This document shows, in pieces, positions 9,983-58,252 of a stretch of 64,000 bases of DNA. A program made the position numbers and the translations under genes. Source of the stretch: Rhynchopus sp. YZ270_cl-10 (Eukaryota); the NCBI GenBank assembly GCA_964035575.1, contig OZ037839.1, forward strand, positions 868,001 to 932,000, read 5' to 3'. How positions within the stretch are numbered: the first letter of the stretch is position 1; each line of letters opens with the position of its first letter. Under the pieces are notes generated by a model. It did not search any database, was not told the DNA's origin, and saw nothing but the letters and a program-made list of their open reading frames with translations.

Positions 9983-12318
9983 GAGGGTGGGCGTGTTTTC
10001 CTAGAATTTGACGGACGTAGCTCGTAGAACCCAACGAGGAATGAGAAAAAAGGATAATATTGTGGCGAAATTATAAAAGTAGCGCACCGTGCGCCTGCGG
10101 CGCAAGCTTACCGTAAATTGCATGACATAGGTACTGGGTACTCACCCAAAAAAGTGGACGGCATCTAAAAATGTCCGCCTGCGGCGCGGCAGCCCTTGAC
10201 CCAGTTTCCCCCTTGTCTTGTTCAGTCGGCAGGATCACTTGGCCCATCACCATACACTGATGTTGACCAAAAGCCAAGAACATGTCATTTCGTCAAATTG
10301 ACCCCCACCACAGCGCGGACGGATCCCAAAAACTCCACAAACTAGCTTCTCCAGGTCTTTCGCGCGCGAATCGCGCGAAGAACGTTTTCTGCCTCACCCC
10401 CCTAAGGTCAAAAAAACCGGTTCCTAAAAAAAACTCTGAAAAAAACAAAACAAAAAAAATATTATTGAGATGAACCTACCGGGAGTGAAAAATACGGAAG
10501 TAACAAAGTGGAATGGCATGAAGCATGCAAGCGGAATGTGAAGTGATGTGAAGTGAAGGAAAGAGAGTTGAAGTGAAGGACACGCAGAGAGCACAAGAGG
10601 AACTGTGCCCTTGATCCGACCCCAAAGAAGTGTCCAATGAAGGTGGGTGGTACAGTGGGGATGATTTCTTGCTCACTCAACAAAACACTACTCGACCCGC
10701 CCAAACACACAGAATAATCCTAACACCCCAATTCCCACTCCCGCTTTCTTCACTGCCCCTAAAAACCAACGTCACCTAGTCTGCTGCGTACAACGTTGCT
10801 ACACTTGTCCATTCCGTCGACTTTAGACAACATTTTGCAGTAGGAGAGAAAACTGTAACCAATCGTGGTGACTGCTTGCAGGCCGGTGAAGTCCACTTCC
10901 GACAATGATGTGCAGTTGTAGAGAAAACTGTTACCAATCGTGGTGACTGCTTGCAGGCCGGTGAGGTCCACTTCCGACAATGATGTGCAGTTGTAGAGAA
11001 AAGTGCCACCAATCGTGGTGACTGCTTGCAGGCCGGTGAAGTCAACTTTCGACAACGATGTGCAGTTGTAGAGAAAATTGTTACCAATCGTGGTGACTGC
11101 TTGCAGGCCGGTGAAGTCCACTTCCGACAATGATGTGCAGTTGTCGAGAAAACTGTTACCAATCGTGGTGACTGCTTGCAGGCCGGTGAAGTCCACTTCC
11201 GACAACGATGTGCAGTCGGAGAGAAACCTACCACCAATCGTGGTGACTGCTTGCAGGCCGGTGAAGTCCACTTCCGAAAATGATGTGCAGTTGTAGAGAA
11301 AATTGTTACCAATCGTGGTGACTGCTTGCAGGCCGGTGAAGTCCACTTTCGACAACGATGTGCAGTTGTAGAGAAAATTGTTACCAATCGTGGTGACTGC
11401 TTGCAGGCCGGTGAAGTCCACTTTCGACAACGATGTGCAGTTGTAGAGAAAATTGTTACCAATCGTGGTGACTGCTTGCAGGCCGGTGAAGTCCACTTCC
11501 GACAACGTTGTGCAGTTGTTGAGAAACTCGTCACCAATCGTGGTGACTGCTTGCAGGCCGGCGAAGTCCACTTTCGACAACGATGTGCAGGTGTTGAGAA
11601 AATTGTTACCAATCGTGGTGACTGCTTGCAGGCCGGTGAAGTCCACTTCCGACAACGTTGTGCAGTTGTTGAGAAACCCGCCACCAATCGTGGTGACTGC
11701 TTGCAGGCCGGCGAAGTCCACTTTCGACAACGTTCTGCAGCCGTGGAGAAACCCGCCACCAATCGTGGTGACGCAGGGTAATGCAGGCAGGTGCAGTGTG
11801 ATGCCACAGTTGTCATCCACATTGGGTACGCAACTGAAACCAATGCGCGTTACGTCACTACCTGAGAAGAAGTCTTCTGGAATCTCAGTCGCAACTTCTG
11901 ACTGAAGAAGCAAGCTGGCCACCTTCGGATCCTCCACCTGCTGCAACCTTTCTGCTGGTAAACGTTTTTTAAAAATAGGATGGAGCACCCCGGTCCGAAA
12001 AGGAATGCAGCCACCCCTGGCTTCAGGCTCGCGAACCCAGTATTGCAGTAACACTGGGTCTCACGGGCCAAAAACCGAACAAAGAAAAGGAAAATGTTTG
12101 GGTTCAGCGACAGCGCCAATGGGCTGACGCGAGGCTGAACCAACTTAAAATAAAATAAAAAATCTTGTATCAACTTGAAAAGGAAAAGCAATGAACAGCA
12201 ACAGAGCCATTTGGGCTTACGCGTCGCTATAGTAACTGAAAAACAATGTTTTAAAAACAAGAATGTCGTTGACCAAGATTGAAATACACGAAAAAGGTAA
12301 AATACTAAGAATTGCCTC

Positions 12319-14342
12319 ATATTCCATGGGCATCGTTTCTGATGTTGTAGTTTGTCTGCTGAGTGATCACGCGCCCCCCCTACTAGGGAGGTCTTAGGTT
12401 CATGCTTCGGCTAGCACGTAAAAGCTACCATGTCGCCGAAGTTAGCGGTCCTCGTATTCCATGAGGTCTTTCAGATGTTGTTGTTTGACTGCTGAGTGAT
12501 CATGCGCCCCCCCTACTAGGGAGGTCTTAGGTTCATGCTTCGGCTTGCACGAAAAAAGCTACCATGTCGCCGAAGTTAGCGGTCCTCGTATTCCATGAGG
12601 TCTTTCAGATGTTGTTGTTTGACTGCTGAGTGATCACGCGCCCCCCCTACTAGGGAGGTCTTAGGTTCAGGCTTCGGCTAGCACGTAAAAGCTACCATGT
12701 CGTCGAAGTTAGCGGTCCTCGTATTCCATGAGGTCTTTCAGATGTTGTTGTTTGACTGCTGAGTGATCACGCGCCCCCCCTACTAGGGAGGTCTTAGGTT
12801 CAGGCTTCGGCTAGCACGTAAAAGCTACCATGTCGTCGAAGTTAGCGGTCCTCGTATTCCATGAGGTCTTTCAGATGTTGTTGTTTGACTGCTGAGTGAT
12901 CACGCGCCCCCCCTACTAGGGAGGTCTTAGGTTCATGCTTCGGCTAGCACGTAAAAGCTACCATGTCGTCGAAGTTAGCGGTCCTCGTATTCCATGAGGT
13001 CTTTCAGATGTTGTTGTTTGACTGCTGAGTGATCACGCGCCCCCCCTACTAGGGAGGTCTTAGGTTCATGCTTCGGCTAGCACGTAAAAGCTACCATGTC
13101 GTCGAAGTTAGCGGTCCTCGTATTCCATGAGGTCTTTCAGATGTTGTTGTTTGACTGCTGAGTGATCACGCGCCCCCCCTACTAGGGAGGTCCTAGGTTC
13201 GGGCTTCGGCTTGCACGTAGAAGCTACCATGTCGCCGAAGTTAGCGGTCCTCGTATTCCATGAGGTCTTTCAAATGTTGTTGTTTGACTGCTGAGTGATC
13301 ACGCGCCCCCCCTACTAGGGAGGTCTTAGGTTCATGCTTCGGCTTGCACGTAAAGAACTACCATGTCGCCGAAGTTAGCGGTCCTCGTATTCCATGAGGT
13401 CTTTCAGATGTTGTTGTTTGTCTGCTGAGTGATCACGCGCCCCCCCTACTAGGGAGGTCTTAGGTTCATGCTTCGGCTAGCACGTAAAAGCTACCATGTC
13501 GTCGAAGTTAGCGGTCCTCGTATTCCATGAGGTCTTTCAGATGTTGTTGTTTGACTGCTGAGTGATCACGCGCCCCCCCTACTAGGGAGGTCTTAGGTTC
13601 ATGCTTCGGCTAGCACGTAAAAGCTACCATGTCGTCGAAGTTAGCGGTCCTCGTATTCCATGAGGTCTTTCAGATGTTGTTGTTTGACTGCTGAGTGATC
13701 ACGCGCCCCCCCTACTAGGGAGGTCTTAGGTTCATGCTTCGGCTAGCACGTAGAAGCTACCATGTCGCCGAAGTTAGCGGTCCTCGTATTCCATGAGGTC
13801 TTTCAGATGTTGTTGTTTGTCTGCTGAGTGATCACGCGCCCCCCCTACTAGGGAGGTCTTAGGTTCATGCTTCGGCTAGCACGTAAAAGCTACCATGTCG
13901 TCGAAGTTAGCGGTCCTCGTATTCCATGAGGCATTTCTGATGTAGTTTGTCTGCTGAGTGATCACGCGCCCCCCCTACTAGGGAGGTCTTAGGTTCATGC
14001 TTCGGCTTGCACGTAAAAGCTACCATGTCGCCGAAGTTAGCGGTCCTCGTATTCCATGAGGCATTTCTGATGATGTAGTTTGTCTGCTGAGTGATCACGC
14101 GCCCCCCCCACTAGGGAGGTCTTAGGTTCATGCTTCGGCTTGCACGTAAAAGCTACCATGTCGTCGAAGTTAGCGGTCCTCGTATTCCATGAGGTCTTTC
14201 AAATGTTGTTGTTTGACTGCTGAGTGATCACGCGCCCCCCCTACTAGGGAGGTCTTGGGTTCAGGCTTCGGCTAGCACGTAAAAAGCTACCATGTCGCGA
14301 AGTTAGCGGTCCTCGTATTCCATGAGGCACTTCAGATGTTGT
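12319..14342. repeat. About 15 tandem copies of a 133-bp unit
   Basis: GTTAGCGGTCCTCGTATTCCATGAGG recurs at 12441, 12575, 12708, 12841, 12974, 13107, 13240 ... about 14302; near-identical units with no unique spacers. Confidence 0.96.
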
Positions 14343-14361
14343 TCTTCTTTTTCTTCTTGTT

Positions 14362-14427
14362 CCGAGTCTTTGCCGCAGTCCACTGCGTTGCCCGGGGTCA
14401 CCTCGTGGAGGTGCTCGGTAAAACCCC
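14362..14427 (-). ncRNA. HDV-like self-cleaving ribozyme (predicted)
   Basis: GGGGUU(P1) UUA CCGAGC(P2) ACC(P3) UCCACGA(L3) GGU(P3') GACCCC(P1') GG(P1.1) GCAA CGCAG-UGGA-CUGCG(P4) GCAAA(J4/2 with catalytic C) GACUCGG(P2'). Confidence 0.85.
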
Positions 14428-14882
14428 CTGCTGCAACCTTTCTGCTGTGATGTTTGTCTCACCCAATGCATGAAGAGCTGATATGGCTTCGTATTTCATC
14501 GTTTTCGTCAACACGACTGTGTCTCCAGCACTCAGTTCTGTGATGTCCTCTCCTTCCTCCTTCCCTCCGAAGCCCATGCGGAAGCTGTCTTCGCACAACT
14601 CTGCTGCAGTCGCCACCTTCTGCCGCATCGTCTCCGTTGTGTCCTTCTCACCCACCTCCATCACGAAGTCGTTCCCCAAGCCCTGGATAGTCAGTTCCAT
14701 TTTATGTGTCTCTTGATGTATCTCTGTGGGTGGGTTGTTGGGTAAGGAAGAGCTTTTAACCCGCAAACCCCAAGATTTTTTGTCATCTGAATGATGGTCA
14801 CTAGGGGAACGGTAGGGGCTAGGTCACCCATCTATAATTTATAGAATCGCAATTTATAGATTTGTAATTTATAGATTAATTA

Positions 14883-24832: not shown

Positions 24833-24864
24833 GCGGTATACTCCACAGTAGGGTGAAAACGTGG

Positions 24865-27362: not shown

Positions 27363-27370
27363 CGATATTT

Positions 27371-43684: not shown

Positions 43685-45618
43685 ATCGCAGCCAACGTGA
43701 AGGGCATTCTCAACCCCGGCAGCCCGACATGGGCGGTAACCCACACACGCACACACCTCGACCTGTCGGTGAAATGTGGCTCTACTCCAACCCGCCCCGT
43801 ATTAGAAAAATGGAAAAAATGATGGGAGTAGGGTACGGTGTTCAATTTCCTTTTAGCATTGCATGTAATCATATAAAATAAAATGGATGCTTTGTCACGG
43901 CGTACGAAAGTGCTTCGAGGAGTTTTTTTTGAGAAAATTCCAAAAAAAAAAAAAAAAAAACGCTTGAATTTTTAGGGAAAAGCGCTTTTTTCCCTTAAGG
44001 GGTTTGTTAAGGGGGTTTAAGTCCACACTACAAGTGACCCAAACCAAATTTATCGAGTCGCCGATTTCCCGCTGTGGTCATTTTTCTGATAAAAATTACA
44101 AACGCAGTGCCATTTTATGGGAAGCTTTTTTAGAAATGTTGCGTACCGTGTCTTCGCCAGGAACTTTTGGGTGCCATGACCGCTGTTTACTGATAAGAAG
44201 GCTGACATCCACTGCGGCTTGTGGACGGCCACCTGCACCGGCCTCGGAAGAGTACAGTGTACAGGCCTCCTGCACAACAGCCCGGTAGGAAGTGAGAAGG
44301 AGCGAATGTCGCTGATTCGGAGGAACTCTGACTGTGCTTGGTTAACATTCGTCTCTCTGCCGGAGGCTACGATTGCAGGGGGGGTTTTTTTGGTACCATG
44401 CAACGGAAGTTTTTCAAAACTCAAAAATCCTGGCGGCGGGGCCGATAGTCGTCTTTTCCTTTTTTGATAGGGGGACGGGGCGGGGTGTGCATGCAAAGTT
44501 AAATGGAATGACATGAAGCATGCAATCGGAATGTGAAGTGTGGTGAGGTGAAGAACACGCAGAGAGCACAAGAGGAACTGTGCCCTTGATCCGACCCCAA
44601 AGAAGTGTCCAATGAAGGTGGGTGGTACAGTGGGGATGATTTCTTGCTCACTCAACAAAACACTACTCGACCCGCCCAAACACACAGAATAATCCTAACA
44701 CCCCAATTCCCACTCCCGCTTTCTTTACTGCCTCTAAAAACCAACGTCACCTAGTCTGCTGCGTACAACGTTGCTACACTTGTCCATTCCGTCGACTTTC
44801 GACAACGTTGTGCAGTTGGTGAGAAAATAATCACCAATCGTGGTGACTGCTTGCAGGCCGGTGAAGTCCACTTCCGACAACATTTTGCAGTGGGAGAGAA
44901 ACCCTTCACCAATCGTGGTGACTGATTGCAGGCCGGTGAAGTCCAATTTCGACAACATTTCGCAGTCGGAGAGAAACCCTTCACCAATCGTGGTGACTGC
45001 TTGCAGGCCGGTGAAGTCCACTTTCGACAACGATGTGCACCTGTAGAGAAACCAGTCACCAATCGTGGTGACTGCTTGCAGGCCGGTGAAGTCCACTTTC
45101 GACAACGATGTGCACCTGTAGAGAAACCAGTCACCAATCGTGGTGACTGCTTGCAGGCCGGTGAAGTCCACTTCTGACAACGTTGTGCACTCGGAGAGAA
45201 ACTTGTCACCAATCGTGGTGACTGCTTGCAGGCCGGTGAAATCCACTTCCGACAACGTTTCGCAGTAGGAGAGAAAATCGTCACCAATCGTGGTGACGCA
45301 GGGTAATGCAGGCAGGTGCAGTGTGACGCCACAGTTGTCATCCACATTGGGTACGCAACTGAAACCAATGCGCGTTACGTCACTACCTGAGAAGAAGTCT
45401 TTTGGAATCTCAGTCGCAACTTCTGCCTGAAGAAGCAAGCTGGCCACCTTCGGATCCTCCACCTGCTGCAACCTTTCTGCTGTGATGTTTGTCTCACCCA
45501 ATGCATGAAGAGCTGATATGGCTTCGTACTTCATCGTTTTCGTCAACTGGTGGGGGCCCGTTTTCGATGCATGCACCCCTATCCGAGATAGGTGATACAA
45601 TACATCGTGGAGGTGATG

Positions 45619-48600
45619 TTACATAAGTCCATCACCGCCCCTGCTGTGCCCATCCTTCTGCTTCGTCTGCTTCTTCTTGAAGAAGCCTCCCAGCGTCGTC
45701 TGACGCCCCTTCGAGGTGTCGTGGTGGCGGCGGCAGCAGTGCTCCAGCGTACTCTTCTCTTGCACACAGTTCCCGCACCTCGAGAGTCTATGCTTAGTGC
45801 ATGCTTCGTGTCGGATCGGTAACCCGTCGTCGTTGGAGTGGTGCGCAAAGCAGCAATGCATCAGGTCTGCCTGGGCGTTCTTCGAGCAGGCATCACACTT
45901 CGTCTTCCGGTGCAGCACACATATCGCAAACTGGAAGATCGGAACCGCTCCTTCAGGTGCCTTCACGGGTGCGTCCCCTGGACGCACGTGCTCATGGTGC
46001 CGGTAGCGAGCATGCGCAGATGTCTCCTGTTCAGCCCGCTGGATGAATGGTAGTGCCCTCCTGCCCCTAACTTCTGTGGAGGGGTACGCCGTCTCAGCAG
46101 AATACTCCCCCATCCATGTACCTCTCGCTCTATCGCCACCACGGAGCTCCGCCTCAGACATGCCTTCGGAGCTGCGTTGCAGACGGTACGCCACACCAGC
46201 ATCGTATAGCGCACGCAATGCCTTCAACGTTTCTTCTCCGCCGGCAAAGATAGGACGGCGGTCGATGCCTGTGATGGCGTTCGCCCCAAACGAAGCGAGA
46301 ACATGCGTTACCTTCACCTTCCCCGGATGGAGAGAGCTCTCCGAAAAGGTTCTGAGTGAAGCCAACATATGCCCAAAGGTGGTCGTCTTCGCCATTTCTC
46401 TGTGGGCCAGCGCTACTGGCACCACGTCGTCATCATCGTCGTCTTCCTCACTCCCGTCGTCTTCCCCCCCATTGTTGACTTCTTCCCCAGTCCCATCCCT
46501 CGGCTGCTTCAGCTTCGGCGCTATTCTGCCGGTCTTGTCCCCAGGTCGGATGTCCATCCCTGTGGCAACCTCGAAGTCGATGAGCAGCTCCATGTGGGAG
46601 ACTTCACGTCCAGCTTCGTCGCTCCATTGTAAACCACCCAGCCAGGAGGCAAACGCCAGCAGCAGCGCACGTCCATACGGCCACCTCCTTTTCAGGGGGG
46701 TGTAGTCCACCAAACTGTTCGCGTGTTGCGTCGTCGTGTCCAACTCCGGCGCCCACGTCCACGGGTATCGGTCTTCTTGCAGTCGCGGGTTCGTCGCTTC
46801 CGGTCTGCTCCACTTGGAGCGTGCGATGAGGATGCGCACCATCATCTTCTGCAGGTCTGCAACACGGGCGCATTCCAAAGGTGTGTCCGGTGTGCACATG
46901 CCGCAGATAGCGAGACAGTTTGGCCAGGTCGTTCTGTCAATGTCCAACAGCAAGGGGTACTCCGCACGAATGCTACTCCATGCTTCACATTCCCACCACA
47001 AGTGTTTGTGATTTTCGTCCACCCCCGCTTCGCAGTGCACGCAGATGGCCGAGTCCCGTATGCGCGCTCTCGCAAGTCGCACCCCCGTTATCGCACCGTC
47101 AGCTACAATGTGTCGTAGCGTCCCCGCCTCGTAATCCGTCAAAGTTTTGCTTCGGGTGAGAGCAAGGGTTTTCTCCTTATCCACCCCCGCTTCAATACCC
47201 TTCAGGTTAGCTCTGCCTTTGCCATTGGCCTTCGCAGTCGTCTTCGTACGGGAGAGTCGAATGAAGAACATCCGTTCTCGCACAACGTGGCCCAGTCTAC
47301 CCAAGCTTACTGTCTTCACATCAACGATGCTCCCATCGTGCGTTTTCACTTTTGTCGTGTCTATCCATGACCACGCAAGGCGGCTGAGGGCTCGCGCAAT
47401 CAACCCGATGGGTCCTCCAGTCTTCGCCTGCTTCGCTTTCGCACGTGACCTGCACTTTTCGACCAGCAAACAGATCTCATCCGATTTGCGTATCATCGCC
47501 GCCCACGTCATGATCCTTCTGTAGTCGAATGCCACCGAGGGGTCGAGCAGATGGCCTTTCTCGAAGACATTCAGCATGACCGGTACGCTTCTTCGGTTCA
47601 TCTTGTTCACGCCGTGGACCCCTTTCTCCACTGCAGTTGCAAGACTGTTCACGTATTTCCCAGGTGGGTCCTGCACCGTGATACCGTACACAGATTTCGA
47701 CATCACTGCAGCCTGCATGATGCCTGCTTTCTCACCTTGAGTCAGCGGGAGGCATCCCACCTTACCTGCTAGCGGTCCGCATGCGTCGATGGTGTCTTCC
47801 AGCTTCGTCGGGAGCGTGGGCGTCCCAGCCTGTCGGGCCTGCACCGTCGCCCCCAGGCACTCCGACTTCTCGACGCGAGTAAGATCCGCGCCGTTCATCT
47901 GCACAGTTTCCTCTTCATCAGGACGGTTGCTCTGCCACGTGCTCTTCCCCGCGTGGACGCGTTGTCCCGTCAAGTCTGCAAAGTGTCCGGTGAAGGCGAC
48001 ACCCGCTCGCAGCTGGTCGAGGGTCTTCGTCAGGAGGTTGGTGTCGTCAGCATACGCCAGCCCCTGCGTGCCCGTTTCCTTCTCCACCCCGTTCATCCAC
48101 ACCGCCACCAGCGCATTCAGGAAGATTACGCTCAGTGGGCATCCTTGGAGGATACCATTCGTCGCAAACCATTCTTTGCCAAGACCTGCCGGAAGTTTGA
48201 AACGCCTCCCCAGCTTCTTGTATATACCCCGGATGGGGCGCATCATGTTGTCGGGAAGACCCAACCGTTCGACGAGCTGGAACATGATCTCTTGGGGAAC
48301 ACGGTCAAAGCACTTCTGATAGTCGAAGGAGGCTAGATAGATAGGTGTGTCGTCTATCAGAGCCTCCTCCATCTTCGCACAGAGAAACCACAGCAGGTCT
48401 TCGGTTCCGTGTTTGTTCCGGAAGCCGTGTTGCCGCTCGTGAATCCAGGATTCCTGCCACGTCGCCACTTTGCGGAGTCGAGTCGCCGCCCATAACCTGT
48501 ACATCACACTGGTGATGGTAATGGGTCGCTGCTTCAGGGGCTCCTCGCCTTCTCCTTTGGGGATGAGCACCACCAACGCCCTCGCAATCACCCTGGGCCA

Positions 48601-50625
48601 GTTCCCAGTATCCTCGATCAGGTTCAGGCAGCGCGCGAGTTCCTCCAGCAGTGTCAAAGGCAGTTCCTTCAGCTCCTCCACCCTCCACCCATCGAGGCCT
48701 GCCGCCTTTTTCCGCTTCATCTTGCCGATGGTCGTACGGAGGTCGTCGGCGGTCAGGGGTTCGCATACACAAGGGGTCCCTTCAGGAATGTGTTCCTTGA
48801 ACCTATCAAAGAACGTCGTCCACGCAGGTTCTTCGGAATCGTCGTACATCCGGAACACCCCACCCCAAGCACGGTCATCCATGAGCAGTTCATCCATCTC
48901 CTGGAGGTTAGCTGTAACCGTGCCGTCCTCCCGTTTCAGGAACGTGGTGTGTGACGACGTAGCCTTCCGCAGGAACGAGAACACCTTCGCTGGGTTCTCC
49001 TTCATGTGTTCTTTCATTGTGCGGCGCCATTCCTTGATGCGGGCCCGACGCCGTTGCTCCAGCAGGACAAAACCCCTCTTCTTCAAGCAGCCAAGGAGCC
49101 CACACAACGCCTCTATCCCAGGAAGGTCGAGGTCCCAGGTGTCACTCTTCAGTAGATGCTTCTTCTTGCGGATTTTCGCCCACAGCTGCCGTTCGTTCAA
49201 CGATTCTGCAGATGGCTGACCGAAGCGCTTCCTCCGATCACCAATGAGCTGCTCCATCTGACGACATGTCTTCTGCAGTTGAGCCGTCTCCAGGTTCACA
49301 GCATCCGGCGTGTCGCAGTCCATGCGGGCCGTCCGATGTCGGAGAACGTCGGGTTGCACCTCCCCTCTCCCCCTGTGGCGTTGTTGCTTCGGGTCTGAGT
49401 CTGCAGCACCTCTCTTCAGCAGGTAGTCCTCCGCAATCTTGCAGAAGCGTGCCCAGCGATCTTCAACCGACATCTTCGTCAGGTCGGCTTCAGGGGCAGC
49501 GTTCTCCTGCATCACCTTCGCTGCAAGCTCCTTCTCCTTCTTCGCCGGCCATTTCGTCCAGTCGTCGCCGATCAAAGAAAGGGGAGGGCGTGCCTGCGGT
49601 GCCTTCTGCTCGTATCGCGTCAGGTCTAACGTCAACACCACCGGTCTGTGTACCGGGAGGCAGCTCTCTTTCCAGACCACCACTTTGGAGATCGCAGGGG
49701 CAGCCACGTGGTTCGCCAGCACCAAGTCGATACGTCTGCCAGACGATGTGGAGGTATAGCATGTGTTCTCTGCTGCCTTACCCAACTGCTGTGCGTAGGT
49801 ATCTGCCGCATCAACCCATTTGCCGGAGGAGATGGCCGCTCGAATGGCTAGACTTTCGTTAGCCTCTACGTTGAAGTCTCCGGCAATGAACACCGGTATG
49901 TCCCCAAGGCTGGCTGCTTCTTCAAAGATGCCTGTCAGGAGTTGCTCCGTGCGGTCGCTGTCAGCACACACACCATAAAACGAGAACACAGAGATGTTAC
50001 GTCCCCCGCTCCCATATGCCACCTGCGCATGCGTAAAGCGGCATTCGTTCCACGCTTGTTGGGCACATTGTGGCGGTACTGCTCTGGTCGGTATGTCAGC
50101 GCACGTCATGATCGCAACTCCACCATTCTGCGTGCGCGTGCGCAGAGGGTCTGATCCCTGGCTTCGTCTGCAAGGGGCACCAAAGAGAAGCTGCTTGGCA
50201 CCATACCCCTTCACGTCGTTTGCTGCCCCCTTCATCTCTTCTTCTGTGAGGCGCACCTCCTGCAGAGCACAAACGTCCACATCCCACTCCCCCACCGCAG
50301 GGTGTGCCCTCAGAGACGTCACGTTTGCCGTGCCAAGCGACATGGTCGACGGACCCGGATGCTCCTCCACGTCTCCACATGTCAGCAGTGACCCCCTGCC
50401 CAAAAACGCCCCTCGTCGCCTCCCTCGACGCACCCTGTGTCCGACCCCTCGCCCCACCCCCCTTCGCGTTCTACCCTTACCCCTTGTCCCCGACAGCATA
50501 CAGCCCGCAGAGCGCAAACGATGCTGACCCCTTGTTGGGGAGACAGTTTTCACAAAAACGTCTCGTTCTCCAACTACGCACGAAGAAGCCAATCCTGTGC
50601 CGTACCCTTCCACCGCACCACACCG
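45619..50625 (-). CDS. LINE ORF2: 2A-like peptide, APE endonuclease, reverse transcriptase, zinc finger, Cys/His repeats, PIP box
   Basis: APE motifs ANVTSL, LQE, GDFN, RIDLV, HRPV; RT motifs KAAGLDG, RPITI, QHGF, FDYQKCFD, LQGCPLS, YADD; CxxC..HLWWEC. Confidence 0.95.
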   Translation of the reverse strand, partial: RCGAVEGYGTGLASSCVVGERDVFVKTVSPTRGQHRLRSAGCMLSGTRGKGRTRRGVGRGVGHRVRRGRRRGAFLGRGSLLTCGDVEEHPGPSTMSLGTANVTSLRAHPAVGEWDVDVCALQEVRLTEEEMKGAANDVKGYGAKQLLFGAPCRRSQGSDPLRTRTQNGGVAIMTCADIPTRAVPPQCAQQAWNECRFTHAQVAYGSGGRNISVFSFYGVCADSDRTEQLLTGIFEEAASLGDIPVFIAGDFNVEANESLAIRAAISSGKWVDAADTYAQQLGKAAENTCYTSTSSGRRIDLVLANHVAAPAISKVVVWKESCLPVHRPVVLTLDLTRYEQKAPQARPPLSLIGDDWTKWPAKKEKELAAKVMQENAAPEADLTKMSVEDRWARFCKIAEDYLLKRGAADSDPKQQRHRGRGEVQPDVLRHRTARMDCDTPDAVNLETAQLQKTCRQMEQLIGDRRKRFGQPSAESLNERQLWAKIRKKKHLLKSDTWDLDLPGIEALCGLLGCLKKRGFVLLEQRRRARIKEWRRTMKEHMKENPAKVFSFLRKATSSHTTFLKREDGTVTANLQEMDELLMDDRAWGGVFRMYDDSEEPAWTTFFDRFKEHIPEGTPCVCEPLTADDLRTTIGKMKRKKAAGLDGWRVEELKELPLTLLEELARCLNLIEDTGNWPRVIARALVVLIPKGEGEEPLKQRPITITSVMYRLWAATRLRKVATWQESWIHERQHGFRNKHGTEDLLWFLCAKMEEALIDDTPIYLASFDYQKCFDRVPQEIMFQLVERLGLPDNMMRPIRGIYKKLGRRFKLPAGLGKEWFATNGILQGCPLSVIFLNALVAVWMNGVEKETGTQGLAYADDTNLLTKTLDQLRAGVAFTGHFADLTGQRVHAGKSTWQSNRPDEEETVQMNGADLTRVEKSECLGATVQARQAGTPTLPTKLEDTIDACGPLAGKVGCLPLTQGEKAGIMQAAVMSKSVYGITVQDPPGKYVNSLATAVEKGVHGVNKMNRRSVPVMLNVFEKGHLLDPSVAFDYRRIMTWAAMIRKSDEICLLVEKCRSRAKAKQAKTGGPIGLIARALSRLAWSWIDTTKVKTHDGSIVDVKTVSLGRLGHVVRERMFFIRLSRTKTTAKANGKGRANLKGIEAGVDKEKTLALTRSKTLTDYEAGTLRHIVADGAITGVRLARARIRDSAICVHCEAGVDENHKHLWWECEAWSSIRAEYPLLLDIDRTTWPNCLAICGMCTPDTPLECARVADLQKMMVRILIARSKWSRPEATNPRLQEDRYPWTWAPELDTTTQHANSLVDYTPLKRRWPYGRALLLAFASWLGGLQWSDEAGREVSHMELLIDFEVATGMDIRPGDKTGRIAPKLKQPRDGTGEEVNNGGEDDGSEEDDDDDDVVPVALAHREMAKTTTFGHMLASLRTFSESSLHPGKVKVTHVLASFGANAITGIDRRPIFAGGEETLKALRALYDAGVAYRLQRSSEGMSEAELRGGDRARGTWMGEYSAETAYPSTEVRGRRALPFIQRAEQETSAHARYRHHEHVRPGDAPVKAPEGAVPIFQFAICVLHRKTKCDACSKNAQADLMHCCFAHHSNDDGLPIRHEACTKHRLSRCGNCVQEKSTLEHCCRRHHDTSKGRQTTLGGFFKKKQTKQKDGHSRGGDGLM
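50350..50400 (-). other. 2A-like (StopGo) peptide GRGSLLTCGDVEEHPGP
   Basis: 16/17 identical to T2A GRGSLLTCGDVEENPGP; lies immediately before the APE domain. Confidence 0.85.
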
Positions 50626-53600
50626 TCACCGCCCCACATCGCGCAGGGTGTTGCGGCCTACCAACCTGTTGTCTAGTCCCTGGACGGGACGAAACGCGAT
50701 CTCGATGACGTCCCCCGCTACCTTCACGACAGTCACCGGGATGGCTGCGCCGTTGCCTCCCTCCTCGCAGTACTCCATGGAGTCGCCAGCCTCCAGCACT
50801 GCGTTCCCGTACGACTCCTCGTTCTTCTCGTTCCCCTCCGCCTGCTCTTTTGCGGGGACTTCCGTCCGCATCCTGCGCGGCGGACTCAGCAGCGCCACCG
50901 TCTCACCGGACTCACTGCGGTCTTCCCGCTTGCCCGCCAGGGTCACGGCAGGTGGCGCCACCGGCACTCTGGGAGCTGGCGAGGTCTCCGCGTCCTCCTC
51001 GACAGCCGCACAGTCTGGCGATGTCTGCACCGGCAGTGCCATGTCGGCGTCGTCCATCCGTGCCTCGGCGTCTGGTGTCGTGGGTGCGGGGGTCCCTGCG
51101 CCGGCGTTCTCCCCTTGCTCCTGCTCACGTTGTGCCTGCACTGCTGCAGCACGTCTCTCCTTCTTTGCCGCCGCTTCTTCCTGTGCTGCCCGTAGTGCCT
51201 CCCGTCGTTTCTCAGCGGCCACAATGTTCCTGCGTTTCTTCTTCTTCTTCGGGGACGCCACCACAACCTCCACATCACCGGCGCCAGCAACGTCCGCAGT
51301 CGGCGATGTGTCCCTGGGCGGTGCTGACCGCGACCGGTTCCGTGCTTCGGCGACTTCTACGACTACCCCCGGCTTTCCACGGATGGTGTCAGCCCTCCTC
51401 CTCCTGCGGCGCGGGCTCAGCTCCTCAACCTCACTGGACCCATTTCCCGCACGTATCCGCTTACCTGCCATCGTTGCGGGCTCCGGTGACATCACGTCCT
51501 CGGCATTCCCGTCTGGGAGTGTGTCCAACAATTCATCCGCCATCTGCATCTCGGGTGTTGTGGGCGCTGCAGTGGGCACTGCGACAGTCGGGGCCGTAGT
51601 AGCAGCAGCCTCCCCCTCGCGCTGCCTGGCGTTCTCAGCAGCAACTGCAGCAGCGGCGGCGGCGGCTTCCTCCTCCTGCTGCCAGAGGATTGCAGCAGCA
51701 GCGTCGGCTTCCTCACGCTGCTTGAGGACTGCAGCAGCGGCGGCCTTCTCCTCCTCCTCACGCTGCCTCAGGGCTGCAGCAGCAGCGGCCTTCACCTCCT
51801 CCTCGCGCTGCTTGAGGGCTGCAGCAGCGGCGGCCTTCGCCTCCTCCTCACGCTGCCTCAGGGCTGCAGCAGCGGCGGCCTTCACCTCTTCCTCACGCTG
51901 CTTGAGGACTGCAGCAGCAGCGGCCTTCTCCTCCTCCTCACGCTGCCTCAGGGCTGCAGCGGCGGCGGCCTTCGCCTCCTCCTCCTCCTGCCTCAGGGCT
52001 GCAGCAGCAGCAGCGGCGTCCTCTCTCGCAGCAGCCGTGGCCTCCTTCGGCATGGAACAGAGCTTGCCCACTTGCTCCAGCATGGCCGCCATCCACACCT
52101 GCTGCTCCTTCCGTTGCTCCACCCGTTCTTCCCGCAACTGGGCCGTCAGCGACGCCACCGTCTCCTGCAGCAGGGTCTGGAGGCGCTCGCCCACCAGGCG
52201 GTCCAACCTCTCCTCCATCCGGCGCTCCAACTCCGCCCACTTCTCGCCTGCGTCCTCAGGTGATGGGGCGGGCGACGTCATTGGGGGTTGACCCTTCGGC
52301 GTCCGTTGCTTCGTTGTTGTTGTTGTTGTTGGTGGAGGTGTCCTTGATGTGGTAGTGGGTGGCTTCGCTGCAGCTGGCGCTGTTGCTGCTTGGCGTGCGT
52401 GCGCAGCCCAGGACACCCAACCGTAGTCGGGCCCAGTGCCACGGTTGTGCTGCGCTGTCGCCGCCGGCGCCGTCCGGGCACCAAATGTCGGACCAGACGC
52501 ATGTGCGGTATGTACCTTGGCCTTCTGTTTCGCCCCCGGACCCGGAGCCGTTGCCCTACCCCCGCCCTCCTTATGCCCATCCTTGCGGATCAGCAGCCCC
52601 TTCCCGTTCCCCTCCATGTCCATGGCCCACGTCGGCGGATCCAGCTTCGCTCCCACCACCCAACGCCATCCCTCCAGCCTCCGCAGCGGCGTCACCGTCC
52701 ACCCTGCGCCTGCCAGCGACTCCATCACCGCTTCACCGGACGTACCCGACGGGAAACCGGACACCACGTATCGACCTTCGGGCGCCTTTCCCTCCTGCAT
52801 GAGTGCCGCATTTGCACGCTCCTGATCCTCCTTCTTCACCCGTATCCCCAGGGACTCGTACCTCGCCGCCACTCCCCATCCCCCCATCCGGGTCGCCAGC
52901 CCCTGGGCCTCTTCTAGCCCCACCCCGTCCACCAACCACACGACAGGCAGATGCTCCGACTGCTCGCGTCTCATCCGGAAGAAGACACCCCCCTTCCCAC
53001 TCTGCTTCAGGCAGCGCTCTGCTACGTCCTCCCTTACGTCGGCCACCGAGGAGATCAGCTTACCCTCCTGCCACAATGGTGGGCGGTTGAGGTTGCACCC
53101 CACCTCCGCACGCATCTTCTTCCCCGCTGACACCAGGTCCTGCGCTTGTCCTGCTGTCGGCCTCATCGTCACAAACACCGTCACCAGTTGGACGGCCGCC
53201 GACGCCTTCTTCCCCCCGTTTCCTCTCCCCGGCCTCAGCCTCCCCACCACGTACACGGCCGTGCTCGCCGCCCCGTTCACCTTCCCCCCATTCCCCTGCT
53301 TACCCATGGGGCACTGCATCTTCTCCCCACCAGACTTCGGGAAGGACCCGAAACCCACCCACGTCACGCCCGGCGTGCGCGCGATCTTCCCCTCTGCCTC
53401 TACCTCTCTACCCTGCGGCACAAGACAGACCCCCTCCGACTTATCCACCACCTCCCCCCACGGCACAAGCGTCGATCCCACCCACTCCGATTGCAGCAAT
53501 GTCAGCGCTGCCGTCGTCTTCTTTTTCCCTCCCCCCTGGGTGAAGCCCCCCTCCGTCCCCGCCTTCGCATCGTTTCGCGGTTGCGGCACGGTGTACGGCT

Positions 53601-54129
53601 TCTCCGTCACCTCCAACGCACCCCCCACCATCGCCTTGCGGGCCCGGTCTTCGGCGGCTTCTTCCCCCGTGCTCGTGGGGAGGACGCACAGGTAGTGGCA
53701 TGCGTCCACGTACGCCACCGTCACCGCTGCACCGCTGCCCTTCTCCTTCGGGTGCACCTTCAGCACACGCACCTCCCCATCCTTCACCGAGAAGGCATAC
53801 ACCTCCCGCATCAGCACCTCCGCCAACGCCTTCAGGGTCAGGTGGTCCCCCCAGGACCCCTGCTTCGCCATCGCCGAGCAGTACCTCCGGTAGGCGGACG
53901 GTCCTCCGTCAACGTGCTCACCCCAATTCTCCGCTTCCCGTTCCAACACCCCCACCGCCATCTCCCTCAGCCCCCCGTGCGCCGTGGCGTCTCCGTGCAC
54001 AGCCATCGAGACCGCCTTAAATTGGCAGTCTCCGTTCCCCCCTGCGTCCTTTACCCGCATGTCGAAGCCCCTCAGGTATTTCTGCAGCACCCCCTTTTCC
54101 CCCCCTTGGCCACCTGCCCCTCCGCACAT
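50626..54129 (-). CDS. LINE ORF1: N-terminal OTU-like cysteine protease, RRM-like region, Ala/Glu coiled-coil repeats
   Basis: GNGDCQFKAVS..WGDHLTLKALA..CHY; RYVVSGFPSGTS; (AAAAALRQREEE)n; first in-element ATG at 54129. Confidence 0.85.
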   Translation of the reverse strand: MCGGAGGQGGEKGVLQKYLRGFDMRVKDAGGNGDCQFKAVSMAVHGDATAHGGLREMAVGVLEREAENWGEHVDGGPSAYRRYCSAMAKQGSWGDHLTLKALAEVLMREVYAFSVKDGEVRVLKVHPKEKGSGAAVTVAYVDACHYLCVLPTSTGEEAAEDRARKAMVGGALEVTEKPYTVPQPRNDAKAGTEGGFTQGGGKKKTTAALTLLQSEWVGSTLVPWGEVVDKSEGVCLVPQGREVEAEGKIARTPGVTWVGFGSFPKSGGEKMQCPMGKQGNGGKVNGAASTAVYVVGRLRPGRGNGGKKASAAVQLVTVFVTMRPTAGQAQDLVSAGKKMRAEVGCNLNRPPLWQEGKLISSVADVREDVAERCLKQSGKGGVFFRMRREQSEHLPVVWLVDGVGLEEAQGLATRMGGWGVAARYESLGIRVKKEDQERANAALMQEGKAPEGRYVVSGFPSGTSGEAVMESLAGAGWTVTPLRRLEGWRWVVGAKLDPPTWAMDMEGNGKGLLIRKDGHKEGGGRATAPGPGAKQKAKVHTAHASGPTFGARTAPAATAQHNRGTGPDYGWVSWAAHARQAATAPAAAKPPTTTSRTPPPTTTTTTKQRTPKGQPPMTSPAPSPEDAGEKWAELERRMEERLDRLVGERLQTLLQETVASLTAQLREERVEQRKEQQVWMAAMLEQVGKLCSMPKEATAAAREDAAAAAAALRQEEEEAKAAAAAALRQREEEEKAAAAAVLKQREEEVKAAAAAALRQREEEAKAAAAAALKQREEEVKAAAAAALRQREEEEKAAAAAVLKQREEADAAAAILWQQEEEAAAAAAAVAAENARQREGEAAATTAPTVAVPTAAPTTPEMQMADELLDTLPDGNAEDVMSPEPATMAGKRIRAGNGSSEVEELSPRRRRRRADTIRGKPGVVVEVAEARNRSRSAPPRDTSPTADVAGAGDVEVVVASPKKKKKRRNIVAAEKRREALRAAQEEAAAKKERRAAAVQAQREQEQGENAGAGTPAPTTPDAEARMDDADMALPVQTSPDCAAVEEDAETSPAPRVPVAPPAVTLAGKREDRSESGETVALLSPPRRMRTEVPAKEQAEGNEKNEESYGNAVLEAGDSMEYCEEGGNGAAIPVTVVKVAGDVIEIAFRPVQGLDNRLVGRNTLRDVGR

Positions 54130-54166
54130 CGCGTCGAGGCTGCCCCCCGCCGCCGTCCTTCTTCCC

Positions 54167-54250
54167 CGCGCTTTAGCAGACGCCTCCCCCCATAGAGGAG
54201 GGGGGCGTCTCCCGAGGGTACCCCGTGGAGGCGCGTCGTCTCTCACCCTC
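54167..54250 (-). ncRNA. HDV-like ribozyme at the LINE 5' end (predicted)
   Basis: GAGGGU(P1)..CGC(P2) GCC(P3) UCCACGG(L3) GGU ACCCUC(P1') GG G AGACGCC..GGCGUCU(P4) GCUAAA GCG(P2'); P2 is short. Confidence 0.75.
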
Positions 54251-55041
54251 TTCATCGTTTTCGTCAACACCACTGTGTCTCCAGCACTCAGTTCTGTGAT
54301 GTCCTCTCCTTCCTCCTTCCCTCCGAAGCCCATGCGGAAGCTGTCTTCGCACAACTCTGTTGCAGACGCCACCTTCTGCCGCATCGTCTCCGTTGTGTCC
54401 TTCTCACCCACCTCAATCACGAAGTCCTTCCCCAAGCCCTGAATAGTCAGTTCCATTTTCTGTGTCTCTTGATGTATCTCTGCGGGTGGGTTGTTGGGTA
54501 AGGAAGAGCTTTTAACACGCAAACCCCAAGATTTTTTATCATCTGAATCCAAAGAAGCAAGAATTTATAACTTTTGAAAATTTTTCAAATTTATTAGATA
54601 CGAGGGAGGGCTTGGTGGGGAAGAACTTTTTTTCGCGTTGTTTTAACTCTGGGAGGGAGAGAAAGAGAGAGAGAGAGGGTTATTGTGGGTAAGTTGTGCG
54701 GGTGTATTAACACCAGCCCAATACCACGGAGAATGGTTCTGCTCAAATAAAAAACTTCAAAATACCGTCTTCGTACAAATTATCGACCATAAAAATGTTC
54801 GACCTTTTCAGGATTTTATTAGAAGTTCGACCTGTTTTACGGTCGAACATTCTTACGACCACGGTAAAAAGGAAAAAGAATTTGCCGTGTTATGAGAAGA
54901 AAGAAAAATAGAGAAGTGGAAAAGTGCAGATGCCTCACCGCACATCGGCAGACGCAGGGCATTGGTTCCCTTCGGGGTTATCAAACCCCAGAGAGCACTT
55001 CTTTGGGGAAAATGAGGCTTTTTGGAGAAAATCTAGACACC

Positions 55042-55270: not shown

Positions 55271-55338
55271 AAAAAAAAGGAAAAGGAAAAGGAAACAGAA
55301 CTACGGAAGCAGTCTGTTCCATATTTTTTTTTTAAATA

Positions 55339-55606
55339 CCGACCCTCCCCCGTGAAATTGTCCCCCCCCAAAAACCGGTATTTTGCCCCGACGGACAATT
55401 TCAAGGCAGGGGGGGACAATTTCAAGGGAGTCGCAGGGACAACCTTTGCTCCCCCTTCTTCACACCAAAACGGCCATCCCCCTACAGTACGAGAAATTGT
55501 CCCCCCTTTTTTCCGTACGTGATATTGTCCCCCCCTCACTTTTTCTCCCAGGGGGGACAATTTCAAGGGGGTCGGAGGGGGGGACAATTTCACGGGGGAG
55601 GGTCGG
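55339..55606. mobile_element. Young TA-flanked MITE
   Basis: TA|CCGACCCTCCCCCGTGAAATTGTCCCCCC...GGGGGGACAATTTCACGGGGGAGGGTCGG|TA; empty paralogous site at about 58915. Confidence 0.9.
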
Positions 55607-55755
55607 TAAAATATGAAAAGAAAGGCTTTTTTTGCTAAACTATTGGAGTTGCAGTTGCCTCAGTTGTGTTGCCGTTGTGCAATCTCCACTTTTCTCCTTT
55701 GGGTTAGGATCATAGAACGGAACATGCCATGAGTGGGTATTGACACAACCCAAAC

Positions 55756-56239
55756 TCATCCTTGCAGGAGTGTATCGGATTGTATAGCGGATTTGATGTC
55801 TTTGTGTTTTGTGGATTCAGCGGAGGAGGCGGAATGGGACAGAGGGGAGGCACCATCCTCAGGGGTGGTGGTGTCCGCTATCAGTGGAATGGCATGTGCC
55901 GTATCAGAAGCTTGGAGCGCCTTGCTTTCACGTTCCTTTTCTGCTGTGTACTCCTCGACGAATTGCTTGTATGTGCTTTGCTTCATGAAATGTCGCAGAC
56001 TACTGAGAGGTTGTGGTCGTCCTGCGCCGCGTCCGCTGCCGGCAGGACGTTGTGCGCTCTTTGCACCATTGAAGGTGACGGCGCTTGCGTTCAGCTTGTT
56101 CGCAGCAGCCTTGTCTTGAAGCTCCTGCCGGTAGACGCAGGCCCGTTCATCAATCTGGCGTTGTTTGTCGCTGTCCTCGCGTTGCCTTTGCCCCTTCCCG
56201 AAAGCTCTTCACCAGGCTGTTGCTAAATGCAAATGACAT
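55756..56239 (-). pseudogene. Out-of-frame chimaera: YbaB-like 5' end fused to the 3' part of the 59067 gene
   Basis: MSFAFSNSLVKSFREGAKA, then a switch at about 56185 to sequence near-identical to 59493-59067. Confidence 0.85.
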
Positions 56240-56725: not shown

Positions 56726-58252
56726 CTAAAAACCAACGTAACCTAGTCTGCTGCGTACAACGTTGCTACACTTGTCCATTCCGTCGACTTTCGACAACGT
56801 TGTGCATTTGTAGAGAAACCTGTCACCAATCGTGGTGACTGATTGCAGGGCAGTGAGGTCGACTTCCGACAATGATGTGCAGTTGAAGAGAAAATCGTCA
56901 CCAATCGTGATGACTGCTTGAAGGCCGGTGAAGTCCACTTTCGACAACGTTGTGCATTTGTAGAGAAACCTGTCACCAATCGTGGTGACTGCTTGCAGGC
57001 CGGTGAGGTCCACTTCCGACAACAGTTTGCAGTTGTAGAGACAATAATCACCAATCGTGGTGACCGCTTGCAGGCCGGTGAAGTCCACTTTCGACAACGA
57101 TGTGCAGGAGGAGAGAAAATAATCACCCATCGTGGTAACTGATTGAAGGCCGGTGAAGTCCACTTCCGACAACGTTGTGCACTCGGAGAGAAAATAATCA
57201 CCGATCGTGGTGACTGCTTGCAAGGCGGTGAGGTCCACTTCCGACAACGTTGTGCAGTTGTAGAGAAAATAATCACCAATCGTGGTGACTGATTGCAGGC
57301 CGGTGAAGTCCACTTCCGACAACGATGTGCAGTTGTAGAGAAACCTATCACCAATCGTAGTGACTGATTGCAGGCCGGTGAAGTCCACTTCCGACAACGA
57401 TGTGCAGGAGGAGAGAAAATAATTACCAATCGTGGTGACTGATTGCAGGCCGGTGAAGTCCACTTTCGACAACGTTGTGCATTTGTAGAGAAACCTGTCA
57501 CCAATCGTGGTGACTGCTTGCAAGCCGGTGAGGTCCACTTCCGACAACGATGTGCAGTTGTAGAGAAAATAATCACCAATCGTGGTGACTGCTTGCAAGC
57601 CGGTGAAGTCCACTTCCGACAACGATGTGCAGTTGTAGAGAAACCTATCACCAATCGTGGTGACTGATTGCAGGCCGGTGAAGTCCAATTTCGACAACGA
57701 TGTGCAGGAGGAGAGAAAATAATTACCAATCGTGGTGACTGCTTGCAGGCCGGTGAAGTCCACTTTCGACAACGTTGTGCAGTTGCAGAGAAACCTATCA
57801 CCAATCGTGGTGACGCAGGGTAATGCAGGCAGGTGCAGTGTGATGCCACAGTTGTCATCCACATTGGGTACGCAACTGAAACCAATGCGCGTTACGTCAC
57901 TACGTGAGAAGAAGTCTTCTGGAATCTCAGTCGCAACTTCTGCCTGAAGAAGCAAGCTGGCCACCTTCGGATCCTCCACCTGCTGCAACCTTTCTGCTGT
58001 GATGTTTGTCTCACCCAATGCATGAAGAGCTGATATGGCTTCGTACTTCATCGTTTTCGTCAACACCACTGTGTCTCCAGCACTCAGTTCTGTGATGTCC
58101 TCTCCTTCCTCCTTCCCTCCGAAGCCCATGCGGAAGCTGTCTTCGCACAACTCTGTTGCAGACGCCACCTTCTGCCGCATCGTCTCCGTTGTGTCCTTCT
58201 CACCCACCTCAATCACGAAGTCCTTCCCCAAGCCCTGGATAGTCAGTTCCAT
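56726..58252 (-). CDS. UBL-LRR paralogue 5 (14 LRRs), intact
   Basis: Same architecture as 41376-43052. Confidence 0.92.
   Translation of the reverse strand: MELTIQGLGKDFVIEVGEKDTTETMRQKVASATELCEDSFRMGFGGKEEGEDITELSAGDTVVLTKTMKYEAISALHALGETNITAERLQQVEDPKVASLLLQAEVATEIPEDFFSRSDVTRIGFSCVPNVDDNCGITLHLPALPCVTTIGDRFLCNCTTLSKVDFTGLQAVTTIGNYFLSSCTSLSKLDFTGLQSVTTIGDRFLYNCTSLSEVDFTGLQAVTTIGDYFLYNCTSLSEVDLTGLQAVTTIGDRFLYKCTTLSKVDFTGLQSVTTIGNYFLSSCTSLSEVDFTGLQSVTTIGDRFLYNCTSLSEVDFTGLQSVTTIGDYFLYNCTTLSEVDLTALQAVTTIGDYFLSECTTLSEVDFTGLQSVTTMGDYFLSSCTSLSKVDFTGLQAVTTIGDYCLYNCKLLSEVDLTGLQAVTTIGDRFLYKCTTLSKVDFTGLQAVITIGDDFLFNCTSLSEVDLTALQSVTTIGDRFLYKCTTLSKVDGMDKCSNVVRSRLGYVGF

Follow-up and report, generated by a model that had tools for sequence, protein, structure and literature searches.

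Genes at the locus

The DNA considered here is a stretch of 64,000 nucleotides from the eukaryote Rhynchopus sp. YZ270_cl-10 (assembly GCA_964035575.1, contig OZ037839.1, positions 868,001 to 932,000 of the forward strand; "the window" below means this whole stretch), and its main subject is a family of genes in which a ubiquitin-like (UBL) domain is joined through a linker to a tandem array of leucine-rich repeats (LRRs). The window is eukaryotic in character and poor in introns, with about 15 genes on a single strand; the minus strand carries all the long open reading frames (ORFs) whose product can be recognised. Four arrays of a 75-bp unit were located by Tandem Repeats Finder, at 10836-11772, 41433-42614, 44791-45297 and 56783-57814, and belong to four gene copies that we call p1, p2, p3 and p4. 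Read in the minus-strand frame, the arrays contain 13, 16, 7 and 14 units, respectively, of 25 codons each and at a spacing of exactly 25 residues, with no stop codon in any of the 50 units. A common N-cap precedes each array and a common C-cap, KVDGMDKCSNVVRSRLGDVGF, follows it. The initial annotation of this DNA, which was made from the letters of the sequence, described four near-identical paralogues with these same unit numbers, and the heads, linkers, caps and 3' flanks of the four are indeed nearly identical.

The p2 gene (41376..43052, minus strand) runs uninterrupted through UBL, linker, 16 LRR units and C-cap, and p4 (56726..58252, minus strand) has the same uninterrupted arrangement with 14 units; their matches to the Pfam family LRR_5 have E-values of 9.3e-58 and 5.3e-73, respectively. 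The remaining two copies each lie in two parts on the minus strand. The 3' part of p1 (10759..11957) comprises the end of the linker, the N-cap, the 13 LRR units, the C-cap and the stop codon and is severed from its own UBL; homology to p2 and p4 in a self-BLAST comparison stops at 11957, and the intact UBL with the start of the linker (MELTIQ...AERLQQ) is found at 14427..14700. The 3' part of p3 (44734..45547) similarly carries linker, N-cap, 7 LRR units and C-cap, and the UBL of this copy (MELTIQ...TKTMK) lies at 54250..54456, where it is now the N-terminus of a fusion protein with the first ORF of a long interspersed nuclear element (LINE). The regions upstream of p3 and p4 (54250-56185 and 58046-59496) share two blocks, about 1.4 kb in all, at 98% identity, which points to a recent segmental duplication that included the adjoining small gene (59067-59537).

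A fifth paralogue, p0 (8774..9739, minus strand; protein P0100), was not part of the initial annotation. It is an uninterrupted but divergent UBL-linker-LRR ORF of 321 aa, whose repeats are without homogenisation and whose C-terminal tail is basic and resembles a nuclear localisation signal (NLS). The DNA of its UBL is 86% identical to that of p2 and p4, and the protein matches LRR_5 with 64.7 bits (E 1e-17) and the Pfam ubiquitin family with an E-value of 2.4e-4, below the cut-off.

A ubiquitin-like head on a BspA-type repeat rod

The repeats of all four array-bearing copies belong to a recognised class. Each copy matches LRR_5 (PF13306), with 153, 194, 112 and 243 bits for p1 to p4 against a gathering cut-off of 27.7. 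An AlphaFold2 model of the p4 protein, built on a 64-sequence family alignment, reached a pLDDT of 89.9 and a pTM of 0.83, with pLDDT values of about 98 across much of the repeat region, and it gives each unit two short strands, at unit positions 17-19 (KVD) and 3-4 (TI). When the model was submitted to Foldseek, the top match was 4fs7, a BspA-type LRR protein of Bacteroides (E 3.9e-9, TMt 0.56), followed by 4gt6 and 4h09, so that the profile and the solenoid fold both assign the repeats to the BspA-type LRRs.

A model of residues 1-147 has a pLDDT of 73.9, and residues 1-70 of it superpose on ubiquitin chains with TMt values of 0.74-0.77 and an rmsd of 2.1-2.4 A over 70-72 columns. The order of strands and helices is that of ubiquitin, and by this structural superposition the head is a member of the ubiquitin fold; some relatives also bear a precomputed match to the Pfam ubiquitin family PF00240. 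The motif MGFGGK within the UBL is almost invariant. The domain ends in ...GDTVVLTKTMK, with no Gly-Gly, and continues into a linker of three conserved helices, and it thus has neither the exposed C-terminal Gly-Gly nor the cleavable extension of a conjugatable modifier. Apart from a weak match to ubiquitin, a Pfam scan of the window copies returned LRR families alone, with no ubiquitin-associated (UBA), NACHT/NB-ARC or F-box domain, and an NCBIfam scan of the window proteins gave no match above cut-off (TIGR02167 appeared below cut-off, for p0 alone). The initial annotation had seen no signal peptide, and this agrees with a ubiquitin fold at the very N-terminus and no hydrophobic stretch there, the best 10-residue Kyte-Doolittle mean being 0.81. 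Judged by hydropathy and fold, and by the CaaX-like or NLS-like tails of relatives, the proteins do not show the export or surface anchoring (by signal peptide, lipobox or membrane span, with the LRRs outside) that characterises BspA-like surface proteins.

Four hypervariable codons in each repeat

Differences among the units are concentrated in unit codons 6, 7, 10 and 11 (TTIG-xx-FL-xx-C), referred to below as the hypervariable codons. Over the 50 units, 8, 11, 8 and 10 distinct residues, respectively, are found at these four codons, and 13 of the other 21 codons show one or two residues. Codons 13, 14, 17, 20, 21, 22 and 25 are di- or oligomorphic, a feature absent from the initial annotation. 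The residue pairs quoted there (GG/HG, NN/YN, DE/TY, DW/YR, EG/SH, DR/YK and AY/HN) are all present in the units. Most of the hypervariable codons are single-base neighbours (NAY, NNC).

Rates were estimated by pairwise Nei-Gojobori counts and by parsimony on a FastTree tree of the 75-nt units, with bootstrapping over units; the codon tests rest on the window's 50 units and the diversity values on the 46 internal ones. Nonsynonymous diversity (pN) at the hypervariable codons is 0.44 and synonymous diversity (pS) in the 21 scaffold codons is 0.10, which gives a ratio of 4.4 (bootstrap 3.4-6.3). The low pS supports the earlier description of a scaffold almost invariant at silent sites, and the ratio lies above the dN/dS of 1 or less that the initial annotation had named as refuting its proposal. 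Parsimony places 71.3 nonsynonymous changes on 10.2 hypervariable sites and 28 synonymous changes on 16.6 scaffold sites, a ratio of 4.15; the excess, 71 changes against 17 expected under neutrality, has a Poisson P of about 3e-22. Between paralogues, the non-repeat coding parts (UBL, linker and caps) have a pS of 0-0.04, and the 280-bp 3' flanks are identical at 242-272 of 280 positions, i.e. 3-13% divergence, so that nonsynonymous diversity at the hypervariable codons is about 4-5 times the flank divergence. The rate excess has the same direction with three yardsticks.

The pattern extends beyond the window. Across 15 subfamily proteins, 113 units show 89 different combinations of the four residues, and the residues at these positions are drawn from a restricted range: Asp, Asn, Tyr, Ser and Gly account for 355 of 452, and Leu, Ile, Val and Met for none. 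Entropy likewise peaks at these four positions when 130 units of more distant relatives are compared. Residues at the concave-strand positions 16, 17, 19 and 21 (S, K/E, D and T) are conserved, which places the variable stripe after the second strand. The initial annotation had located the variable residues outside the xVDx strand, and the strands of the model, at unit positions 17-19 and 3-4, put them there as well. Because the solenoid is modelled with confidence, the units are predicted to stack in register, and equal positions would then align along the rod.

The arrays also contain an overlapping ORF in a second frame (e.g. 56743-57864). This ORF was considered as a source of constraint on silent sites and rejected, since a 75-nt unit without stops is expected to give rise to it. 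The relative P0132 frameshifts into the second-frame ORF.

Changes within the arrays

Most units resemble their own array most closely. Of the 50 units, 31 have their closest match within the array that they belong to (12.7 by chance), 15 have it in another array and 4 are ties. Two pairs of neighbours are identical (units 5 and 6 of p1, and units 3 and 4 of p3), and units 2, 3 and 4 of p4 differ from units 6, 7 and 8, respectively, in 2-3 places, revealing the duplication of a four-unit block. These three features bear out the proposal in the initial annotation that recombination has shaped the arrays. They do not bear out the shuffled unit order that had been read from the recurrence of DRFLYN-DYFLYN; what p4 contains is the four-unit block duplication. 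Several end units pair across genes, the first units between p2 and p3 and the last units among p2, p3 and p4, a pattern consistent with evolution of the arrays by unequal exchange inside them. Unit number changes by ordinary unequal recombination or slippage, as the arrays directly show. In addition, the coding framework is more uniform than the adjacent neutral flanks, which points to gene conversion.

Self-BLAST puts every unit inside one of the four complete arrays, and no stray or partial 75-bp cassette was found in the window. Nothing in the window therefore suggests an assembly process like that of the variable lymphocyte receptors (VLRs), and the analogy with VLRs drawn in the initial annotation fails, the germline genes being complete and the window free of stray cassettes.

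Independent sequence supports the unit variants. In runs of three studies, short contigs with exact matches reach 28, 28, 26 and 18 of the 30 bins of the p4 array; with lengths of 35-270 nt none of them spans an array, so that they support the unit variants and not the order or number of units. Since these contigs come from other runs, the unit variants can be taken as real sequence.

A large family of predicted intracellular proteins

The window copies belong to a large family. A search with the whole protein found 863 relatives at an E-value of 1e-3 or better, and a 112-residue query made of UBL and linker matched at least 376 longer proteins. Among the 120 UBL-linker relatives listed, all but 10 contain LRR_5 and all are without a protein name; their contigs are 0.1-2.2 Mb long. 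Out of 1.84 billion representatives clustered at 50% identity, 167 match the UBL-linker module, and about 85 of these are true relatives, the rest being polyubiquitins. So small a number among so many representatives argues that the module is confined to a narrow lineage.

The C-termini of 155 relatives fall into several types. CaaX-like endings (CSVS, CVCM or CVIS) occur in 30, often after Cys and Lys; basic NLS-like tails occur in 37, hydrophobic tails in 14, and the window-type cap DKCSNVV in 19. The combination of an N-terminal UBL with CaaX-like, NLS-like or hydrophobic tails, as read from the sequences, argues for predicted intracellular proteins that would reside in varied compartments.

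The protein P0120 (899 aa), the sole listed relative with a source recorded at NCBI, has a hydrophobic N-terminus and no UBL. It contains two blocks of very similar VTTIGxxFLxxC repeats and is 48% identical to p4 over 28% of p4. P0120 is possibly bacterial and is a candidate lead to the origin of the repeat.

Insertions in p3 and p1

The p3 gene is split by a non-LTR retrotransposon of 8.7 kb (45548..54249, minus strand) with a 19-bp target-site duplication, GTTGACGAAAACGATGAAG, one copy of which lies at 45529-45547. ORF1 of this LINE (to 50626) continues the frame of the host UBL, with which it is fused, and encodes an OTU protease domain in which the Cys and His motifs are present. ORF2 (45619-50499) encodes an N-terminal 2A-like sequence, DVEEHPGP, an apurinic/apyrimidinic endonuclease (APE) and a reverse transcriptase. 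One report describes 2A-like sequences in the trypanosome elements Ingi and L1Tc and also in multicellular organisms (PMC3708506).

Similar fusions are found elsewhere in the family. The proteins P0162 and P0163 each carry a copy of ORF1 on a different UBL, with 100% identity between the copies across 501 residues, and in both the fusion junction falls exactly between ...VVLTKT[MT]K and RVRDDAPPRG. Altogether four different UBLs are fused in frame at one junction, at the codon directly behind the UBL (P0160, P0162, P0163 and P0214), three to ORF1 copies without a difference in the 501 residues compared and one to ORF2; in the last of these, P0214, the UBL is joined to a 5'-truncated ORF2. Three further relatives (P0175, P0195 and P0219) break off at the site of the LINE junction, and the 3' end of the LINE and the target site have CGAAAACG in common. 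Judged from these sequences, the LINE looks like an active, site-specific element that uses the gene family as both landing pad and start codon.

The insertion in p1 (11958..14426, minus strand) is 2.47 kb long, with a 21-bp target-site duplication, CAGCAGAAAGGTTGCAGCAGG, one copy of which lies at 11937-11957. It consists largely of 15 copies of a 133-bp satellite (12315-14346) and has no long ORF of its own. The 5' ends of this insertion and of the LINE have a common CCTCCACG(A/G)GGT motif, and the p1 insertion may for this reason be a non-autonomous partner of the LINE. The relative P0144 is also broken at the AERLxQ codon of p1, but a different sequence follows.

Interpretation and rival explanations

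On balance it seems probable that p1 to p4 are young copies within a large, lineage-restricted family of UBL-linker-BspA LRR proteins, and that the four variable residues of each repeat likely make up a ridge for ligand binding whose diversity selection maintains. The likely meaning of the rate excess at the hypervariable codons is that the protein, a predicted cytosolic adaptor, has a variable surface for binding, and ordinary recombination plus diversifying selection is the likely explanation for the pattern as a whole. Such a system could be modelled as follows. Point mutations at codons 6, 7, 10 and 11 would be retained by diversifying selection, and each protein would come to show its own stripe of side chains rich in Asp, Asn, Tyr, Ser, Gly and Arg. 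The proteins are predicted to be intracellular, and there the invariant UBL-linker, perhaps with the conserved concave face, may tie the variable binder to one common partner. That partner would most likely belong to the ubiquitin system, and the protein would then be an adaptor. From the interpretation offered in the initial annotation, this account keeps the recombination, the rate excess, the location of the variable residues in a loop and the lack of a signal peptide, and drops the analogy with VLRs. The docking of the UBL to the proteasome suggested there finds no support, and a role against viruses or endosymbionts is a mere possibility.

Several observations weigh against this proposal. 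With respect to the head, the matches to PF00240 (17.7 bits for p2, 18.2 for p4 and 21.2 for p0) are below the gathering cut-off of 25.4, and the residues that make up the recognition surface of ubiquitin are replaced: among 66 family sequences, the equivalent of Ile44 is Gly in 55, Glu in 7 and Ser in 4, and the equivalent of Val70 is Thr in 58. As modelled, the head is a ubiquitin fold without ubiquitin's canonical recognition patch. The missing patch and the low profile score make the link to the proteasome or to ubiquitin receptors a weak one. With respect to selection, the comparison of pN at the hypervariable codons with their own few silent sites gives a ratio of 1.43 (1.10-2.00), and the rate tests are crude, since the units recombine and are non-independent and recombination inflates the number of changes at common polymorphisms. 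The solvent exposure of the hypervariable residues is deduced from strand positions, residue type and solenoid geometry. Among the four copies, only p2 and p4 are uninterrupted, p1 and p3 being split by insertions with target-site duplications, and the relatives P0125, P0126, P0132 and P0144 are truncated or frameshifted. These interrupted copies and broken relatives indicate a family that is partly decaying, in which relaxed constraint contributes. Finally, no RNA dataset is listed for the p4 locus; two runs presumed to be RNA contained 0.05 of its words, and the one of them that was compared gave only some short matches, at 90-99%.

The chief alternative holds that constraint is relaxed in a family that is partly in decay, an account in keeping with the pseudogenes. 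The hypervariable residues would on this account be an unconstrained surface in a pseudogene-rich family evolving by birth and death, and the scaffold would be frozen by conversion or recent duplication. The splitting of two of the four copies and the truncated or frameshifted relatives are what such decay predicts, the ratio against the hypervariable codons' own silent sites is only 1.43, and within these codons the counts of nonsynonymous and synonymous variants are near the ratio of the sites. Conversion or recent duplication would, however, wipe out the hypervariable variation as well, since it lies inside the same 75-bp units, and nonsynonymous diversity there is 4.4 times that of scaffold silent sites and about 4-5 times the flank divergence. 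Furthermore, the residues are strongly non-random, with no aliphatic residue in 452, the 50 units contain no stops, and the same positions vary most in distant relatives that are intact. In light of these arguments, we regard neutral decay as unlikely. An error of assembly, with arrays wrongly collapsed or expanded and consensus errors in place of real differences, is a natural worry because near-identical 75-bp units assemble poorly and no short-read contig spans an array. This explanation is nonetheless very improbable, given four arrays that are in frame at an exact 25-codon spacing without stops, exact-match contigs of other runs that cover 26-28 of the 30 p4 bins, and variation restricted to the same codons in 15 proteins.

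Two further alternatives accept the diversity as functional and differ in where the proteins act or how the diversity arises. The proteins could be BspA-like adhesins, exported along some unconventional pathway and used at the cell surface for binding to prey, host or substrate, a role that has been proposed for the families of Trichomonas and Entamoeba. The repeat type is the same, and in the available part of one report about 190 of the 911 Trichomonas proteins have inferred transmembrane domains and one entry has a signal peptide (PMC2843621). A ubiquitin fold at the extreme N-terminus does not suit this role, however, and the CaaX-, NLS- and tail-anchor-like C-termini of the relatives are features of cytosolic or nuclear targeting; we consider a surface adhesin quite improbable. 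The other alternative, a programmed diversification through somatic assembly of VLR-type cassettes or through mutagenesis templated by a retroelement, is suggested by the constant framework with hypervariable codons and by the reverse transcriptase inside one copy. This reverse transcriptase is nevertheless part of an ordinary APE-type LINE with target-site duplications, and all units in the window are inside the four complete arrays with no flanking partial cassettes. The hypervariable codons differ mostly by single-base steps (NAY/NNC), as point mutation predicts, and unit variants reappear letter for letter in the short-read contigs of three studies. Programmed diversification is therefore extremely improbable.

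The binding-ridge proposal can be carried further, to a scheme that we count as rather unlikely. In it, several hundred cytosolic receptors of the UBL-LRR type would be kept as a library in the germline and sorted to their sites by CaaX motifs, NLSs or tail-anchors; their hypervariable ridges would recognise intracellular non-self that evolves fast (viral, endosymbiont or retroelement proteins), and their UBL would pass it on to a machine for degradation or signalling. If true, the family would amount to a repertoire for innate immunity whose pair of domains is not seen in animals or plants; a site-specific LINE would in turn exploit it, using the UBL to get its ORF1 with the OTU protease expressed.

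The novelty lies in the pairing of a UBL with BspA-type LRRs, in the predicted intracellular setting and in the scale; literature searches found no paper on a UBL-BspA-LRR fusion. The binding-ridge proposal would provide a concrete case of an intracellular, germline-diversified family of binders in a deep-branching eukaryote, and the UBL-linker module is a defined handle for finding the partner. The apparently site-specific LINE with its ORF1-UBL fusion is a second lead, and one that is easy to verify.

Other features of the window

The spacer between p0 and p1 contains an isolated 116-nt fragment of eukaryotic small-subunit (SSU) rRNA (9853-9968, plus strand), which includes GCCAGCACCCGCGGTAATTCC and matches Rfam RF01960 with 78 bits at model positions 479-594. 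The sequence GCCAGCACCCGCGG is presumably the kinetoplastid form of the 530 loop; taken with the genes on one strand and the 2A-like motif of the LINE, it would suggest a euglenozoan or kinetoplastid-like source. This fragment is the sole match in an Rfam scan of the window, and a tRNA search of the window found none.

The 16-kb stretch at 19300-35600 has a lower GC content, of 0.40-0.45, and its ORFs longer than about 160 aa are only repeat-derived. A T-rich tract (22040-22136), an exact tandem duplication of 262 bp (26291-26818) and the tracts (CAGTATACA)x52 (24375-24841) and (GAAGGG)x40 (30847-31089) lie within it. A gene at 16314-17618 (minus strand) encodes a WD40 protein whose first 70 or so residues appear ubiquitin-like by eye.

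Comparison with known systems

Large families of BspA-like LRR proteins are known from a few parasitic protists and are usually read as surface proteins. The bacterial BspA-type LRR proteins (4fs7, which is BACOVA_04585, 4gt6 and 4h09) share the fold and the Pfam family of the window proteins, but they are annotated as cell-surface proteins, have no UBL and are 18-20% identical to the window protein. A eukaryotic expansion of this kind is that of Trichomonas vaginalis, with a vast set of 911 BspA-type LRR proteins (TvBspA) encoded by clustered genes that include many pseudogenes; many members are without signal peptide or membrane span and are read as surface or extracellular proteins (PMC2843621). 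The TvBspA and Entamoeba BspA-like proteins resemble the UBL-LRR family in repeat type and in being a vast, partly pseudogenised expansion in a eukaryotic microbe. They differ in the head, since the TvBspA report mentions no ubiquitin-like domain (the word "ubiquitin" has 0 occurrences in the paper; PMC2843621), whereas a UBL-linker heads essentially every member here. The surface reading given to TvBspA there also contrasts with the CaaX-, NLS- and tail-anchor-like tails of the window family. A related class, DUF285/PARCEL, is described in another report as BspA-like repeats of 25 residues in which hydrophobic positions are conserved and hydrophilic ones vary (PMC2996958). On that description the window repeats are alike in length and pattern, but the window proteins match LRR_5 and not DUF285. 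Uncharacterised clusters in the ESM Atlas pair DUF285 with a ubiquitin-family domain, at scores of 0.78-0.84 (below 0.9), and provide a lead only.

The layout of the proteins recalls the UBL-UBA shuttle factors Rad23, Dsk2 and Ddi1, in which an integral, non-conjugatable N-terminal UBL is followed by a cargo-binding part. The logic of the layout is the same, with the LRRs as the would-be cargo binder, but the window proteins are without a UBA domain and have Gly and Thr at the equivalents of Ile44 and Val70; the Ile44 patch and the UBA that define a shuttle are both lacking. The repeat DNA in turn recalls the transcription activator-like (TAL) effectors, whose near-identical DNA repeats have two hypervariable positions per unit. 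The window units are like TAL repeats in confining variation to a few codons of a near-identical repeat, but the fold differs and there are four such positions here. A recognition code of the TAL effector kind was considered and rejected, because 89 residue sets in 113 units are far too many for a small code.

Among immune receptors, the lamprey VLRs are put together somatically from cassettes and have their variation on the concave face of the strands, and the plant nucleotide-binding LRR receptors (NLRs) have an NB-ARC domain. The window family differs from the NLRs, and from F-box-LRR proteins, in having no NACHT, NB-ARC or F-box match in Pfam. It differs from the VLRs in its conserved concave strands, its variation after the second strand and its complete germline genes, an incomplete germline gene with donor cassettes being the VLR arrangement and not the one found here. 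What the family has in common with VLRs and NLRs is a set of hypervariable, predicted exposed LRR residues carried on a constant framework.

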